A stretch of DNA of 4,153 nt from Escherichia coli (GTDB lineage: Bacteria; Pseudomonadota; Gammaproteobacteria; Enterobacterales; Enterobacteriaceae). The stretch lies in NCBI RefSeq assembly GCF_003334255.1, contig NZ_QOWU01000111.1. One strand, 5' to 3'. Shown piece by piece: positions 115-3,875 of this stretch. The notes under the pieces are model-generated. The model was not told where the DNA came from. It did not search any database and was given only the letters and a program-made list of their open reading frames with translations. Position numbers and translations under genes: made by a program. Positions within the stretch are counted from its first letter, which is position 1. Every line of letters begins with the position of its first letter.

Positions 115-191
115 GCGTTGTTAGCTCAGCCGGACAGAGCAATTGCCTTCTAAGCAATCGGTCACTGGTTCGAATCCAGTACAGCGCGCCA
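115..191 (+). tRNA. tRNA-Arg, anticodon TCT (decodes AGA), 77 nt with encoded CCA
   Basis: Hand-folded cloverleaf. Acceptor 115-121 GCGTTGT pairs with 181-187 ACAGCGC (one G-U pair). D stem GCTC 124-127 / GAGC 137-140. Anticodon stem ATTGC 142-146 / GCAAT 154-158 with 7-nt loop CTTCTAA, anticodon TCT at 149-151. 5-nt variable loop. T stem ACTGG 164-168 / CCAGT 176-180 with loop TTCGAAT. Discriminator G188, CCA 189-191. Resembles the argO/argN-type tRNAs carried in lambdoid late regions (from memory, not searched). Confidence 0.85.
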
Positions 192-298
192 TATTCATTC
201 TTCCAGATTCCTTTCGGCAGAGCCTTATACTGAAATATACCTGGCTCAGGATATTGTTGAAAATATTATATGTTTGTCAAAAATAAAAGTTCTGTTAA

Positions 299-655
299 GT
301 GTTGATTGAGTGTTTGTTATACGGTCTAATGGTTTTTTCAGCATTAAATATTTATCATTCATATGGTGTGGGTAGAGTGAATATTGATGAGGCGTCGGGG
401 TGTTTCATCCTTAGGCAGCGTATTGATATAGTCAATGCAGAACGAGCAAAGGCCTTCAGCCGTTTGACAGTTTTGTTCTGTACTCCTGATCGTCTTTCGG
501 GAAGAGACGTTATTATTCTGAATAGTGATGCTATACAGAGGGTTTGCGATGAGTTCATGGTGGCTAATTCAGAATTATTTGCTCTTGTTCAGGAGTACAA
601 CAGAATAGCCAGGACCTGTGGTATGGATGAACTTCGGATTACTCATCTGGGGTAG
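299..655 (+). CDS. hypothetical protein (118 codons as drawn; true start uncertain, candidates GTG299, ATG329, GTG377)
   Basis: Open frame from the six-frame track ending at TAG 653-655. No convincing Shine-Dalgarno in front of any candidate start. 6 of 11 Arg codons are AGA/AGG (3 AGA, 3 AGG), directly beside a tRNA-Arg(TCT). AT-rich promoter-like stretch 250-298 upstream. No domain recognised by eye. Confidence 0.3.
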   Translation: MLIECLLYGLMVFSALNIYHSYGVGRVNIDEASGCFILRQRIDIVNAERAKAFSRLTVLFCTPDRLSGRDVIILNSDAIQRVCDEFMVANSELFALVQEYNRIARTCGMDELRITHLG

Positions 656-735
656 ATACATATCTGGATTATCACCGGTTACGGTAAAAAGTGATTGCTT
701 ACTGTTTTTGTGAATGGCATTGCAGCAGCCGGATA

Positions 736-822
736 ATGTCAGTGCTGGCTGACGGTGTGCTGGTGGCGGGTGTGGTGGTTGCTGCTTTCCCGTTGCTGAA
801 AAAGAAAACGCCAGACTGTTAG
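736..822 (+). CDS. candidate small hydrophobic peptide, 28 aa (MSVLADGVLVAGVVVAAFPLLKKKTPDC); frame is open back to GTG691, which would give 43 aa
   Basis: ATG 736, TAG 820-822. One uninterrupted hydrophobic stretch of about 17 residues followed by KKK, typical of small single-pass membrane peptides (type I toxin-like or leader-like). GC-rich, E. coli-like codon choice. Only a weak SD (GGAT/CCGGA) upstream. Below the ORF-track length cut-off, so found by reading. Confidence 0.2.
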   Translation: MSVLADGVLVAGVVVAAFPLLKKKTPDC

Positions 823-1047
823 CCGGGTATCAGTTAGCGGGAGAAATTTTTAAATACTTCACAATTCAGGCGGTTGACTGTTGTCTGGTTTGCGGGGAGT
901 TTGTTAAAAGAAACTGGCATGGTGAATCCCCCTGTGCGGAGGGGCAATCAGCGAGTAGGTATATGGGATAATCGCGGATTCAGGTGCTGGTACTGAATTC
1001 ACCGGGAGGCACCCGGCACCATGCAATGGCACATAGCGCCACTCTCC

Positions 1048-1083
1048 AGCCCCTCTCCGGAGGGGCTGTTTATATTGATTTTG
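1048..1083 (+). terminator. Rho-independent terminator candidate, plus-strand orientation
   Basis: Perfect 8-bp GC-rich stem AGCCCCTC (1048-1055) / GAGGGGCT (1060-1067) with 4-nt loop TCCG, followed by GTTTATATTGATTTTG. On the minus strand the same hairpin is followed by GGAGAGTGG (no U tract), so it looks unidirectional. Confidence 0.5.
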
Positions 1084-1102
1084 TCAGATGTGAGTAAACT
1101 CC

Positions 1103-1438
1103 TTATGGACTTTGTTGTTTTAGCCCATAAGGACATATTTGCAGAGTGCAACGGTTATTAAAGCATTCATTCAATACGTTATCTGTATTTGTAGGGCATT
1201 CCTGGCTGTTTTTGATTAAATTCCAGAATGTTTTATTGAATGGTACTACGTTGTAAATGGTTACAGGCAGCACTTTGTTATTGAGCATGATGCCTGTGTG
1301 AGTCAGTGTAAATATACTTTCAGGAGGTAAGAAAGCATCCGATTGATACCAGATTATTAATTTTATTTTACTCCATATGACTGAAAAAGATATTCCGCAT
1401 GATGGCTGGATAACTGTATCAATCACAATCCACTTCAT
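1103..1438 (-). CDS. hypothetical protein, 111 aa, AT-rich moron-like gene convergent with the late operon
   Basis: Only long ORF in a roughly 30-35% GC block (hand count of subsegments) where the plus strand is littered with stops in all frames. SD AAGGA about 6-7 nt upstream of the ATG at 1438 (minus-strand reading AAGGAAACTAA-ATG). Cys-containing C-terminal segment ([26 protein letters not shown]). No family recognised. Confidence 0.4.
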
Positions 1439-1478
1439 TTAGTTTCCTTGTTTATGCCTTGCTGGTGATGTTCTGAAA

Positions 1479-1505
1479 AGTATAAATGATATTTTTGATT
1501 GTAAA
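1479..1505 (-). promoter_or_regulatory. possible sigma70 promoter for the minus-strand 111-aa ORF
   Basis: On the minus strand: -35-like TTTACA (plus coords 1500-1505), 15-nt spacer, -10-like TATACT (plus coords 1479-1484), about 40 nt upstream of the ATG at 1438. AT-rich context makes chance matches likely and the spacer is short. Confidence 0.2.
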
Positions 1506-1683
1506 CCATAGATCAGAATTATTTTTCTGATGTTGTTTATTGTTTATTTAAATGCAGGGTGGTTTATATCTCGTCTTGTAGTTTATCCATGCATATCTGC
1601 TTGATGATGAGGTTTTTAATTAAGGTATGGTTTTGTGTTTTTTCTGTATTACATGTCAGGTATTTTAAAGAATCATTTTTCAG

Positions 1684-1887
1684 ATGGTGGAAAGAACCAT
1701 GGCATTTAAACACTATGATGTTGTCAGGGCGGCGTCGCCGTCAGATCTTGCGGAAAAGCTGACACATAAACTGAAAGAGGGCTGGCAGCCGTTTGGTAGT
1801 CCGGTGGCCATAACCCCTTATACCCTGATGCAGGCGATTGCAGCAGAAGGTGATGTGGTGGTCAGTGGTGCAACTGAGCCGGAGTGA
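1684..1887 (+). CDS. DUF1737-like small phage protein (67 aa from ATG1684; alternative start ATG1699 preceded by GGTGGAAAG)
   Basis: Sequence MAFKHYDVVRAASPSDLAEKL...GWQPFGSPV resembles, from memory, the DUF1737 domain that occurs as small standalone prophage proteins and as the N-terminus of nanS-p-type esterases found between Q/stx and S in lambdoid prophages. Stop TGA 1885-1887. Confidence 0.6.
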   Translation: MVERTMAFKHYDVVRAASPSDLAEKLTHKLKEGWQPFGSPVAITPYTLMQAIAAEGDVVVSGATEPE

Positions 1888-2042
1888 TACTACGTCATCG
1901 TACTGGCCCGGCATTCCAGGCCATAAAAGACGGTCTGGCAGTGGGACTAAATGCACTGACGCTGACGGATATTACCAAAAATGCAACGTATGGCGTTGAG
2001 ATAGAAAGTCTGGTGCTGGAGATAAATGCACCGGCATCATCA
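1878..2042 (+). pseudogene. possible 3' remnant of a larger gene (frame shifted relative to the DUF1737 ORF)
   Basis: A different frame is open from 1878 to TAA 2040-2042 and translates to a protein-like tail (...[50 protein letters not shown]) with no ATG start (only GTG1884). Together with the upstream DUF1737 ORF this looks like an internally deleted multi-domain gene. Could alternatively be a small overlapping ORF or chance. Confidence 0.3.
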
Positions 2043-2130
2043 TAAAAAGTGAGCCAGTCAAATGGAAGGTATCGTTAAACTCACCGGTAGTGTCAGTGGG
2101 TCGTCTGAGACGCCTGCATGAGTTATCAGA

Positions 2131-2160
2131 GCCATCAGTACTTAACTGGTGGCTTTTTTA
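2131..2160 (+). terminator. Rho-independent terminator immediately upstream of the holin gene
   Basis: 8-bp stem GCCATCAG (2131-2138) / CTGGTGGC (2146-2153) with one G-U pair, 7-nt loop TACTTAA, followed by TTTTTT (2154-2159). Confidence 0.6.
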
Positions 2161-2194
2161 TTGTTGTCAGCTTCCGGATAACGGGAGACGGGGT

Positions 2195-2410
2195 ATGTAC
2201 CAGATGGAAAAAATCACAACAGGTGTGTCATACACCACGTCAGCGGTGGGAACGGGCTACTGGTTCCTGCAGTTGCTGGACAGGGTTTCCCCGTCTCAGT
2301 GGGCGGCAATAGGCGTGCTGGGGAGTCTGCTGTTTGGGCTGCTGACATATCTGACTAACCTGTATTTCAAAATCAAAGAGGACCGGCGTAAGGCGGCGCG
2401 GGGAGAGTAA
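2195..2410 (+). CDS. S: class II holin (phage 21 S21-like pinholin), 71 aa, probable dual start Met1/Met4
   Basis: Protein [71 protein letters not shown] is near-identical in the C-terminal two thirds to phage 21 S as I recall it. Two TMDs (a Gly/Ala/Ser/Thr-rich TMD1 and a hydrophobic TMD2) with a charged C-tail. SD GGAGA before ATG2195, second in-frame ATG at 2204. The ORF-track entry 2090..2410 is the same frame, but its extension runs through the terminator hairpin. Confidence 0.9.
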
Positions 2411-2414
2411 AGTG

Positions 2415-3305
2415 ATGAATAAAAAATATGAACTGGTTGTTAAGGGGATAAATAATTACGGGGATAAGGTTACTGTTACTGTGAAGCCGGAAGGTGACGG
2501 GCAAGCGTCGCTGTTGTTGCCAGATGTGGCGATTAGTCTTGACCGTACTGAAGGTGCCACGCTGGAGTTTTACGAAGCTGAGGCGAAAAAGCAGGCGAAG
2601 CAGTTTTTCATGGATGTTGCTGCCGGGTTATGTGAAGGGGATGGTCCGTTGCCGGAAAAGCGCCCCGTAATTTTAGAGGCGCAGGATGTGTTGATAACCT
2701 ACAAAGGAAAGCTACCGGGAAGAATTACTTGTTCTCTGAAGATGCCGCCGTCAACACTGCGGTCAGAAAAAGATGATGTTGAATCACGTATTGAAAAACT
2801 GGAGAGCTACGTCGTTGAGCTGAATAAGAAATGGTCGATATTGGTGCCTTCTGGCGATGAAAAGCAGTTTGCTGCGTTTGACGATTATTGTCGGAAAGTG
2901 ATGAGCAGAAATCTCGCAGAGTGTTTCAGTATTCATAATGATAATTTCAGTGACCCGGAATGGGAGTGTAACCGGCCATCCTTTGTTGTATCCGGTGATG
3001 CTGGGAAAATAACCATCTCAGAAAATGGGAAAGTAACACCTCCATCGCACCAGCACAGTGAGGAGCTCATTGAATTTGCCATTGATTACCTGAAGAACAA
3101 TAAAAAGCAGGGGCTGATGAAGCGCGTTGGCCGTTGCATGGGATATCTGCAGGTAGCTGCTGAGATTGAAGCGCTGGCCAGTGGTGCTGATAAGGATGCA
3201 ATTGTGCGGGAGGCTCTTCTTCGTGATTTTAATACTCCACCCTTTAAAAAAGTGCCGGCTTACTGGCTTCATCCGGGGCTGACTTATCTTAAAGTGCGTA
3301 TTTAG
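2415..3305 (+). CDS. hypothetical protein, 296 aa, inserted between holin and endolysin (function unknown)
   Basis: Long clean ORF with ATG at 2415 (GTG at 2412 also in frame). SD GGGAGAG at 2401-2407 sits 7 nt upstream and overlaps the last codons of S, whose TAA stop (2408-2410) lies between SD and start, i.e. translational coupling. No signal peptide or TM segment and no catalytic motif recognisable by eye. Stop TAG 3303-3305. Confidence 0.7.
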   Translation: MNKKYELVVKGINNYGDKVTVTVKPEGDGQASLLLPDVAISLDRTEGATLEFYEAEAKKQAKQFFMDVAAGLCEGDGPLPEKRPVILEAQDVLITYKGKLPGRITCSLKMPPSTLRSEKDDVESRIEKLESYVVELNKKWSILVPSGDEKQFAAFDDYCRKVMSRNLAECFSIHNDNFSDPEWECNRPSFVVSGDAGKITISENGKVTPPSHQHSEELIEFAIDYLKNNKKQGLMKRVGRCMGYLQVAAEIEALASGADKDAIVREALLRDFNTPPFKKVPAYWLHPGLTYLKVRI

Positions 3306-3341: not shown

Positions 3342-3875
3342 ATGAACACCAAAATCAAATACGGCCTGTCGGCTGCCGTTCTGGCGCTGATTGCCGCTGG
3401 TGCGCCTGCGCCTGACATTCTCGACCAGTTTCTGGATGAAAAGGAAGGCAAGCACACCACAGCATACCGTGATGGTGCGGGTATCTGGACCATCTGCCGA
3501 GGTGCCATCATGGTGGATGGTAAGCCTGTGATTCCTGGCATGAAGCTGTCGAAGGAAAAATGCGACTGGGTTAACACTATCGAACGGGATAAGGCGCTGG
3601 CGTGGGTGGAGAAAAACATCAGAGTGCCACTGACCGAACCCCAGAAAGCGGGGATCGCGTCATTCTGTCCGTACAACATTGGTCCCGGTAAGTGTTTCCC
3701 GTCGACGTTTTACAGACGAATTAATGCTGGTGATCGAAAAGGTGCCTGCGAAGCGATTCGCTGGTGGATTAAGGACGGTGGCAGAGACTGCCGTATTCGT
3801 TCAAACAACTGTTACGGTCAAGTATCCCGTCGTGACCAGGAGAGCGCGCTGGCGTGCTGGGGTATCGACAGATAA
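3342..3875 (+). CDS. R: SAR endolysin (phage 21 R21-type lysozyme, T4-lysozyme fold), 177 aa
   Basis: N-terminal weakly hydrophobic Gly/Ala-rich signal-anchor-release segment (GLSAAVLALIAAGAPAP). Catalytic triad spacing E35-x8-D44-x5-T50 (EGKHTTAYRDGAGIWT) seen directly. Overall very close to lambdoid/Stx-phage R proteins as I recall them. No strong SD upstream (36-nt gap after the previous stop). Confidence 0.92.
   Translation: MNTKIKYGLSAAVLALIAAGAPAPDILDQFLDEKEGKHTTAYRDGAGIWTICRGAIMVDGKPVIPGMKLSKEKCDWVNTIERDKALAWVEKNIRVPLTEPQKAGIASFCPYNIGPGKCFPSTFYRRINAGDRKGACEAIRWWIKDGGRDCRIRSNNCYGQVSRRDQESALACWGIDR

Follow-up and report, generated by a model that had tools for sequence, protein, structure and literature searches.

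What occupies the space between the last late-region tRNA and the holin of a lambdoid prophage, the place where Stx-converting phages carry stxAB, and does it hold functions that have not been described before? The question arises for positions 192-2194 of the Escherichia coli window analyzed here (the whole stretch of DNA, 4,153 nt), in which an initial annotation had seen mosaic, toxin-free cargo bounded by terminators and had judged it the likeliest place for new functions. Taken as a whole, the region is best explained, with a probability that we put at about 0.9, as a moron slot of the CFT073 type, made up of a module at 200-858, an STnc100-family small RNA (sRNA) gene, iraL, a remnant of nanS-p and a terminator. 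It is a genuine mosaic slot, already known and essentially ordinary, and its unexplained content is confined to a pair of small genes in the stx position, ORF92 and a gene for a DUF3927 protein.

The left anchor of the slot is a tRNA-Arg with anticodon UCU (115-191, plus strand; ARAGORN, and 68 bits against the Rfam tRNA model), the final member of the late-region tRNA cluster. Its right anchor is the gene for a class II (S21-type) holin (2195-2410, plus strand), called 'class II holin family protein' by PGAP and matching the holin families phrog_9876 and phrog_20. Between and beyond them the order tRNA, cargo, DUF1737, S, R was seen as first annotated. Strain G1/2 is 100% identical over 192-2194, with the gene order Q, tRNA-Ile, tRNA-Arg, tRNA-Arg, cargo, holin, lysozyme, terminase. 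The iraL locus of the CFT073 potB prophage (Hryckowian et al. 2014, mBio, PMC4045071) likewise runs from Q through tRNA-Ile, two tRNA-Arg genes, DUF3927, iraL on the minus strand and a DUF1737 remnant to the holin, and is colinear with the window over 78-2750 at 95.0% identity. These comparisons suggest that the prophage is of the Rac/Qin-like lambdoid kind and essentially the one that uropathogenic E. coli CFT073 carries as its potB prophage. The slot would belong to its late operon, preceded by a Q-dependent late promoter and the tRNA cluster and followed by the lysis cassette.

The equation of the slot with the stx position is supported by the Stx2a phage Stx2_EH1846 (LC567840.1), which presents the same framework as the window in the order tRNA-Arg, stx2A, stx2B, STnc100, an iraM-like gene on the minus strand, nanS-p, terminator and holin. 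Its homology to the window breaks at 199/200, 8 nt past the tRNA-Arg, and resumes at 859, and because of this the block at 200-858 (plus strand, 41.6% GC) is seen to replace stx2AB, exactly in its position. The cargo is thus stx2AB (1,368 bp) in Stx2_EH1846, whereas in the window it is ORF92 and DUF3927 (659 bp). The block has no match in Stx2_EH1846 or in a second Stx2 phage, both of which have stx2AB at this point. As the initial annotation had stated, no stx-like gene is present in the slot: no A- or B-subunit ORFs or family matches follow the late tRNAs in the window, nor does the window contain a DNA match to stx2AB of Stx2_EH1846 or of another Stx2 phage. Beyond the cargo, the sRNA-iraM block of Stx2_EH1846 is only ~70% identical to that of the window, its esterase is intact, and its IraM-family protein shows 73% identity to IraL and 65% to IraM. 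A similar likeness to the window extends to the late regions of Stx2c and Stx2a phages with an iraM-like gene. The block itself is found in the lambdoid phage mEp460 (LR597641.1) at 98.3-98.5% identity. Very probably 200-858 represents an allelic replacement of stx2AB, specifying a 92-aa helical protein and a 43-aa hydrophobic DUF3927 peptide.

ORF92 (377-655, plus strand) matches phrog_2873 (E 1.7e-70) and has relatives at 54-63% identity; its conserved core comprises the 92 aa from GTG 377, with alternative starts at ATG 329 (108 aa) and GTG 299 (118 aa). Judged by its divergence from one relative (32% at the nucleotide level, with no indel or stop, an excess of third-position changes and a dN/dS of 0.28), ORF92 is a real gene under purifying selection. 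An AF2 model (pLDDT 84) shows two long helices in a generic helical hairpin, for which Foldseek found no significant fold match (all E values at least 0.46), and sequence searches returned no Pfam match even at E 10, no PDB match and no PADLOC match. It is a conserved gene in the toxin position that PGAP has left unannotated in every RefSeq record inspected, though of 5,426 complete E. coli genomes 1,183 carry at least 80% of its block. Its partner at 691-822 (plus strand) encodes the 43-aa small hydrophobic DUF3927 protein (PGAP WP_001438304.1; phrog_1470, E 1.5e-11). PHROG labels this protein 'TciB-like', a putative function, and since a literature search for 'TciB' found no relevant paper we could not trace the label. 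The sole promoter-like site for the unit, TTGAAA-16-AAAAAT at 257-284, is at chance level; a sigma-70 scan of the window returned 8 sites against 5.9 expected by chance.

The gene of a prophage sRNA of the STnc100 family lies at 888-1077 on the plus strand. It matches Rfam RF02076 over the complete model (1-206 of 206) at 132.4 bits (gathering threshold 47; E 4.5e-30) and ends in a Rho-independent terminator, a hairpin at 1047-1068 followed by a T-tail (-20.3 kcal/mol, z -4.10, none of 200 shuffles as good). What had been annotated as a terminator of the cargo at 1048-1083 is the 3' end of this gene. In Stx2 phages STnc_100 lies 75 nt after stx2B (PMC12370729), a distance that corresponds to window position 888. 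By alignment, the 5' end of the transcript probably lies near 917: published STnc_100 qPCR primers, used on other strains, match the window exactly at 918 and 991, and PasD2 aligns with its 5' end at 917-929. PasD2, a relative of STnc100 with the same 5' end (GCATGGTGAATCC), belongs to prophage PP2 of EPEC E2348/69, which resembles the window in carrying DUF3927, PasD2, an esterase and a holin; the Pas sRNAs of the E2348/69 prophages have been described by Pearl Mizrahi et al. 2021 (PMC8550237) and in a 2026 preprint by Zhu, Shabalina and Storz. Within 800-2250, other Rfam families gave only matches below threshold (Qrr at 16.5 bits, RcsR1 at 14.5 bits over the 2128-2156 terminator), which we regard as noise.

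On the opposite strand, iraL (1103-1438, minus strand) encodes a 111-aa RssB anti-adaptor of the IraM/IraL family, scoring 162 bits against NF007393 (cutoff 121) over residues 1-110 and matching IraM of PDB entry 8twd with E 9e-32. Two observations identify it with the IraL studied in CFT073, as distinct from IraM. Its accession, WP_000871291.1, is the same in CFT073 and G1/2, and the 32-mer determined by 5'-RACE (PMC4045071) matches the minus strand at 1471-1440 in 31 of 32 positions. IraL is 62% identical to K-12 IraM by our comparison, the published value being 58.9% (PMC4045071). The 5' UTR and promoter (1439-1507, minus strand) comprise the published start at 1471, a -10 hexamer TATACT at 1484-1479 and a -35-like GGTTTACA at 1507-1500, both read directly off the sequence. 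Published work shows that in a CFT073 lysogen iraL has a promoter of its own from which it is transcribed, and that the identical protein binds the adaptor RssB and stabilizes RpoS, acting in logarithmic phase (PMC4045071; its function is also described in PMC7157518). Through its action on RssB, IraL prevents RpoS from being handed to ClpXP, and RpoS accumulates in growing cells as a result. An identical IraL protein adjoins nanS-p in prophage PP5 of E2348/69. The related iraM of E. coli K-12 (b1160), adjoining the cryptic prophage e14, likewise lies in AT-rich, horizontally acquired DNA at a prophage edge, although its genomic context differs. K-12 iraM is controlled by PhoP and induced by Mg2+ starvation. 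Upstream of iraL, the PhoP box search gave a match with one mismatch at 1534-1550, among two such sites in the window where 1.43 are expected by chance.

The DUF1737 piece, first annotated as a gene, is instead the pseudogene remnant of a nanS-p sialate O-acetylesterase (1699-2045, plus strand; a PGAP pseudogene, phrog_143). Its N-terminal DUF1737 part (1699-1887) is stopped by a TGG>TGA change at 1887, and the C-terminal 53 codons (1884-2045) lie in another frame; about residues 1-62 and the last 53 are left, covering positions 1-58 and 582-632 of the 634 in phrog_143. With the intact 617-aa esterase of PP5 as reference, window 1219-1918 corresponds to PP5 sequence 1-700 and window 1903-2048 to 2192-2337, revealing that 1,507 bp have been deleted between imperfect repeats (CTGGCCsGGCAwTCCA), with the deletion junction at 1903-1918. 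A DUF1737 N-terminus joined in one frame to an intact SASA esterase domain, the arrangement that defines NanS-p, is not found here: with a nonsense codon and this deletion, the gene is dead, whereas the esterases of PP2 and PP5 are intact. E2348/69 also has PasA/PasC, encoded on the opposite strand in the gap from esterase to holin. These are missing from the window; queries extracted from E2348/69 by published coordinates gave only chance matches of 8-14 nt in the spacer at 2046-2194. The esterase-remnant unit is closed by an intrinsic terminator with a 12-bp stem (2128-2165, plus strand), 30 nt upstream of the holin start. Its hairpin at 2128-2156, with the tail TTTTTTATT, folds at -17.0 kcal/mol (z -4.16), and again none of 200 shuffles was as good. 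A role for this hairpin in the control of holin translation was considered and rejected, as its end lies 39 nt short of the ATG and also precedes the Shine-Dalgarno sequence, and it has a terminator-like T-tail. The segment 2126-2418 is common to Stx2 phages at 93-94%.

The composition breaks of the initial annotation are real, the computed GC values of 46.2% at 299-1080 and 32.5% at 1100-1680 both falling within the ranges it gave. The low-GC module that contains iraL (1091-1698, 608 nt) has 33.1% GC against 48.4% in the rest of the window (z = -7.6), and among all 608-nt segments of the sequence the GC is lowest in the one that begins at 1069. It had also been proposed that both sub-blocks end in terminators; both hairpins are genuine, but the low-GC block is not closed by the one annotated at 2131-2160, because what it consists of, a gene and its own promoter, lies on the minus strand. 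That terminator belongs to the block of the nanS-p remnant, 1699-2125. The mosaic nature of the region was confirmed, as its relatives each hold different sub-blocks. Phage mEp460 shares 84-1025 (the tRNA, ORF92, DUF3927 and the 5' two thirds of the sRNA gene) at 98.3%, and has TolA-like genes thereafter instead of iraL and the nanS-p remnant; PA2 shares 859-1025 and 1698-1806 and, without iraL, passes directly from the sRNA to nanS-p; PP5 shares 1219-1918 and 1903-2048. Against other phages the breakpoints recur at 199, 859, 1025, about 1698, 1903-1918 and 2126.

The marks of a moron were found to differing extents. Presence and absence between the same flanks is seen for both modules: that of iraL is missing in PA2 and found in Stx2_EH1846 and CFT073, and 200-858 alternates with stx2AB. 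Atypical composition is evident in the GC difference given above. As for transcription signals of their own, the iraL promoter coincides with the published start site and no clear minus-strand terminator was found for the gene, while 200-858 has only its chance-level promoter match and would use the terminator of the sRNA. We propose that the slot is built as a chain of separately exchangeable modules, whose boundaries would be recombination junctions common to Stx2, mEp460 and EPEC prophages, and that 1091-1698 is a low-GC insertion whose iraL gene runs on the opposite strand from a sigma-70 promoter of its own, with the start at 1471.

Three other readings have to be set against this proposal. 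Colinear alignment without composition breaks to a well-annotated backbone, with known functions for every block, would have told against a mosaic, and half of this picture applies: the region is colinear with CFT073 and near-identical and colinear in 859 of 5,426 complete genomes (which hold at least 80% of 192-2194), but the composition breaks are real and 200-858 is without known function. It could be argued from this colinearity that 192-2194 was inherited as one backbone block and was not put together from several units acquired independently. However, 200-858 occurs in 1,183 genomes, 1091-1698 in 1,428 and the composite in only 859, and the sub-blocks have other partners in other phages with recurrent breakpoints, which makes a single block improbable. 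A little less probable still is the view that patchwork and hairpins are leftovers in the non-functional debris of a decaying prophage. The destroyed nanS-p, the IS421 end in place of the 5' part of the first tRNA-Arg and the several pseudogenes marked by PGAP would all fit such decay; against it stand the function of IraL from exactly the same locus in CFT073 (PMC4045071), the dN/dS of ORF92, the full-length, high-scoring sRNA structure, the conservation of the composite at 95% identity or more in hundreds of genomes and the presence of 84-1025 in the mEp460 record.

The suggestion that the slot, as a hotspot like that of stx, holds new and uncharacterized lysogenic-conversion functions deserves more weight, yet we consider it doubtful. 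The position of 200-858 where stx2AB sits, the selection on an ORF92 without family or fold match and the uncharacterized DUF3927 partner speak for it. Conversely, roughly two thirds of the region is accounted for by what is already described (the STnc100 gene, iraL and the promoter of iraL, what is left of nanS-p, and the terminators), the ORF92-DUF3927 pair is common and already in PHROGs, and no search pointed to any phenotype. The initial expectation of new functions had missed both the minus-strand iraL and the STnc100 sRNA, each already described. Only tentatively, then, might ORF92 and DUF3927 form a functional lysogenic-conversion unit (for example in phage exclusion, or envelope or colicin tolerance) in the exact Shiga-toxin slot of roughly one in five complete E. 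coli genomes, its mRNA perhaps yielding STnc100 as a 3' product.

Returning to the modular CFT073-type slot, the sRNA, and probably the ORF92-DUF3927 unit too, would be expressed from the repressed prophage with transcription ending at the 1047-1068 terminator, and on induction Q-modified RNA polymerase would read through both terminators to S and R. The prophage of the window may itself be decaying, its late operon perhaps no longer inducible, given the IS421 insertion and the dead esterase. The locus, which is the one published for iraL in a prophage very common in E. coli and otherwise holds an sRNA already catalogued and an esterase gene that is dead, offers little beyond bookkeeping; the comparison does fix the junctions of the stx2AB replacement to the base, at 199/200 and 858/859, and reveals a recurrent recombination breakpoint within the sRNA gene, at 1025, where mEp460 diverges. 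Besides the IS421 end and ~5% sequence divergence, the window differs from CFT073 in the S-R gap, which holds a 297-aa DUF1327-fusion ORF where CFT073 has a 114-aa YdfR and a small minus-strand ORF.

The cargo of this late region occupies, to the base, the position at which Stx2 phages carry their toxin genes. In pairwise BLAST against the Stx2a phage Stx2_EH1846, homology ends at 199, 8 nt beyond the single intact tRNA-Arg of the window (tRNA-Arg(UCU), 115-191), is absent over 200-858 and restarts at 859, 46 nt past the stx2B stop, continuing at about 70% identity through an sRNA gene, an iraM-family gene and the start of an esterase gene. The order in that phage is tRNA-Arg, stx2A, stx2B, STnc100 match, iraM-like gene on the opposite strand, yjhS/nanS-p, holin and endolysin, and both junctions are identical in the 933W-like phage PA2. 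As the junctions at 199 and 859 recur in both Stx2 phages, the 659 bp of 200-858 represent an allelic replacement of the 1,368-bp stx2AB. These shared junctions bear out the initial annotation, which had read the slot (192-2194) as a moron hotspot with the architecture of Stx-converting phages; its account of the content was correct in the slot architecture but missed both the sRNA and the minus-strand iraL. ORF and family searches found no stx-like ORFs in the window, as had been stated.

The compositional observations made from the sequence alone are likewise confirmed. GC content is 46.2% over 299-1080 and 32.5% over 1100-1680, much as had been estimated, and the module at 1091-1698 (33.1% against 48.4% in the remainder of the window, z = -7.6) has the lowest GC of any equal-sized stretch in the window. 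The two proposed terminators were the top two hits of a terminator scan and are real by comparison with shuffled controls, with folding energies of -20.3 kcal/mol for 1040-1085 and -17.0 kcal/mol for 2120-2168 (z -4.10 and -4.16, respectively) and 0/200 shuffles as good in either case.

The locus itself has been described before: it is the iraL locus of a prophage that is very common. The slot is 100% identical to the E. coli G1/2 chromosome; among complete E. coli genomes, 859 of 5,426 contain 80% or more of its length. Its context in G1/2 is a Rac/Qin-like lambdoid prophage with the order ydfABC, cI/cro-like, DUF968, RusA, antiterminator Q, tRNA-Ile, tRNA-Arg, tRNA-Arg, cargo, class II holin, lysozyme, terminase and portal; the potB prophage of uropathogenic CFT073 has the same layout and is colinear with 78-2750 at 95.0% identity. 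The first 75 bases do not belong to the prophage but to the right end of an IS4-family IS421 element, which has taken the place of the 5' portion of the first tRNA-Arg in the late region and leaves only a 3' fragment of it at 76-101. This junction occurs in only 2/5,426 complete genomes (strains 205 and CP55_Sichuan, 96-97% identical).

The low-GC block is iraL (1103-1438, minus strand, 111 aa); its product reaches 162 bits with the NCBIfam IraM model (cutoff 121) and is 62% identical to K-12 IraM. The IraL accession, WP_000871291.1, is common to CFT073 and G1/2, the latter having the same DNA as the window over this region. The CFT073 gene was named iraL by Hryckowian et al. 2014, who reported that IraL binds RssB and stabilises RpoS in logarithmic phase, and mapped the mRNA 5' end by RACE (PMC4045071). 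The 32-nt RACE sequence matches the minus strand of the window at 31/32 positions (1471-1440), with the -10 hexamer TATACT at 1484-1479. Raised IraL levels have been reported in a CFT073 fur mutant (PMC7157518). A PhoP-box-like sequence with one mismatch, TGTTTATTGTTTATTTA, lies at 1534-1550 (plus strand), 63-79 nt upstream of where iraL transcription starts; such a match is at chance level in so AT-rich a stretch. At 80% coverage or more, the module is present in 1,428/5,426 complete genomes, and also in 45 phage records, the majority of them Stx2c or Stx2a phages whose copy is 74-78% identical. In PA2 the esterase comes directly after the sRNA with no gene between, which makes the iraL module an insertion with respect to the PA2 backbone. 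The copy in the Stx2a and Stx2c phages encodes a third allele of the IraM family (73% identity to IraL, 65% to IraM), placed directly after stx2 and STnc100; in Stx2_EH1846 it lies at 4252-4575 of locus L003 (minus strand). As far as could be seen this allele is not yet characterised, and through it Shiga-toxin phages would be connected with RpoS stability.

Upstream of iraL, STnc100 (RF02076) matches 888-1077 over all 206 model positions (132.4 bits, gathering score 47, E 4.5e-30). The match terminates in the 1047-1068 hairpin and T-tail, and the first of the two terminators is thus the 3' end of an sRNA gene. A 2025 paper (PMC12370729) locates STnc_100 75 nt beyond stx2B in Stx2 phages and reports its detection in outer-membrane vesicles; the qPCR primers of that study have exact matches in the window, at 918 and 991. 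The sRNA is related to EPEC PasD1/PasD2 (2026 preprint, 10.64898/2026.05.13.724894), and because the PasD2 5' end (GCATGGTGAATCC, from published coordinates) aligns at 917-929, the probable transcript start lies near 917, not at the first position of the Rfam model. Homology to the lambdoid phage mEp460, PA2 and many or most Stx2a phages halts at 1025, within the sRNA, while other phages match as far as 1067 or 1084. With this recurrent breakpoint inside the gene, the 5' body and the terminator of STnc100 seem to recombine as separate pieces. Phage vB_EcoS-640R1 (locus L002) has two STnc100-like copies in tandem (3397-3748 and 4001-4235), the first preceded by a DUF3927-like gene and 77% identical to window 723-1070, the second 93% identical and followed by iraL. 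The partial "hypothetical protein" pseudogene that PGAP calls over the sRNA at 907-1032 (minus strand) in G1/2, CFT073 and E2348/69 is most likely an annotation artefact.

Within the slot, only the two small genes that take the toxin's place are without a known role. The 200-858 block is 98.3-98.5% identical in mEp460 and is covered to 80% or more in 1,183 complete genomes. It encodes a 43-aa DUF3927 protein (691-822, plus strand; annotation and profile match) and ORF92, a 92-aa frame (377-655, plus strand) that PGAP left unannotated in every record inspected. ORF92 matches phrog_2873 (E 1.7e-70) and has relatives of 54-63% identity. The conserved core opens with VNIDE at GTG 377, the relatives reading MNIDE at this point. 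Compared with the relative at locus L010, the 276-nt core has 89 differences, distributed 25/22/42 over codon positions 1/2/3, no indels, no stops and a dN/dS of 0.28, a pattern that identifies ORF92 as a real gene. The L010 relative lies upstream of a DUF1737 gene, with TolA-like, AraC-family and IS3-family transposase genes adjacent, a neighbourhood consistent with the same kind of slot. No match to ORF92 was found in Pfam, PDB or PADLOC; its AF2 model is a confident (pLDDT 84), plain two-helix hairpin with no significant structural neighbour.

What had been taken for a nanS-like gene is a wreck. In prophage PP5 of E2348/69 an identical IraL is followed by an intact SASA esterase of 617 aa (nanS-p). 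Aligned with this esterase, the window matches as far as 1918 and then from 1903 onwards, the 1,507 bp between two imperfect direct repeats (CTGGCCsGGCAwTCCA) having been lost, and a TGG-to-TGA change at 1887 stops the N-terminal fragment ahead of the deletion junction. What is listed at 1884-2045 as a 53-aa "hypothetical protein" is simply the end of the esterase, still read in the frame it had originally. In agreement, the PHROG hits reach only residues 1-58 and 582-632 of the 634 in the profile, and PGAP flags the remnant as a pseudogene; the DUF1737 piece is a dead esterase. The second terminator (2128-2156) comes after it, and terminator, spacer and holin (2126-2418) are 93-94% identical to Stx2 phages. 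PasA/PasC, which in EPEC lie on the opposite strand of the esterase-holin spacer, are absent from the window by comparison with the EPEC copies.

For the identical locus it has been established that iraL has its own sigma-70 promoter and that IraL blocks RssB, allowing RpoS to escape ClpXP (PMC4045071). Beyond iraL, the anatomy of the region and general knowledge of lambdoid late operons suggest how the slot may be expressed. In the lysogen, transcripts from the late promoter would end before the region, leaving expression to units with their own promoters, namely iraL, the sRNA and possibly ORF92-DUF3927, and rightward transcripts would stop at 1047-1068 and 2128-2156. After induction, Q-modified polymerase would pass both terminators and reach S and R.

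The lysis genes are presumably of the phage-21 type, judging from a dual-start motif (MYQM...) in the holin at 2195-2206 and an N-terminal hydrophobic, signal-anchor-release-like segment (MNTKIKYGLSAAVLALIAAGA...) in the endolysin at 3342-3420. Between holin S and endolysin R lies a 297-aa ORF (2412-3305, plus strand) that matches phrog_1085 over its full length (296 aa, E 2e-188). DUF1327/YdfR covers residues 2-101 only (Pfam 6.6e-40), with no family for the remainder, and PGAP annotates the N-terminal third alone, calling it a "YdfR pseudogene"; in its place CFT073 encodes an ordinary YdfR of 114 aa.
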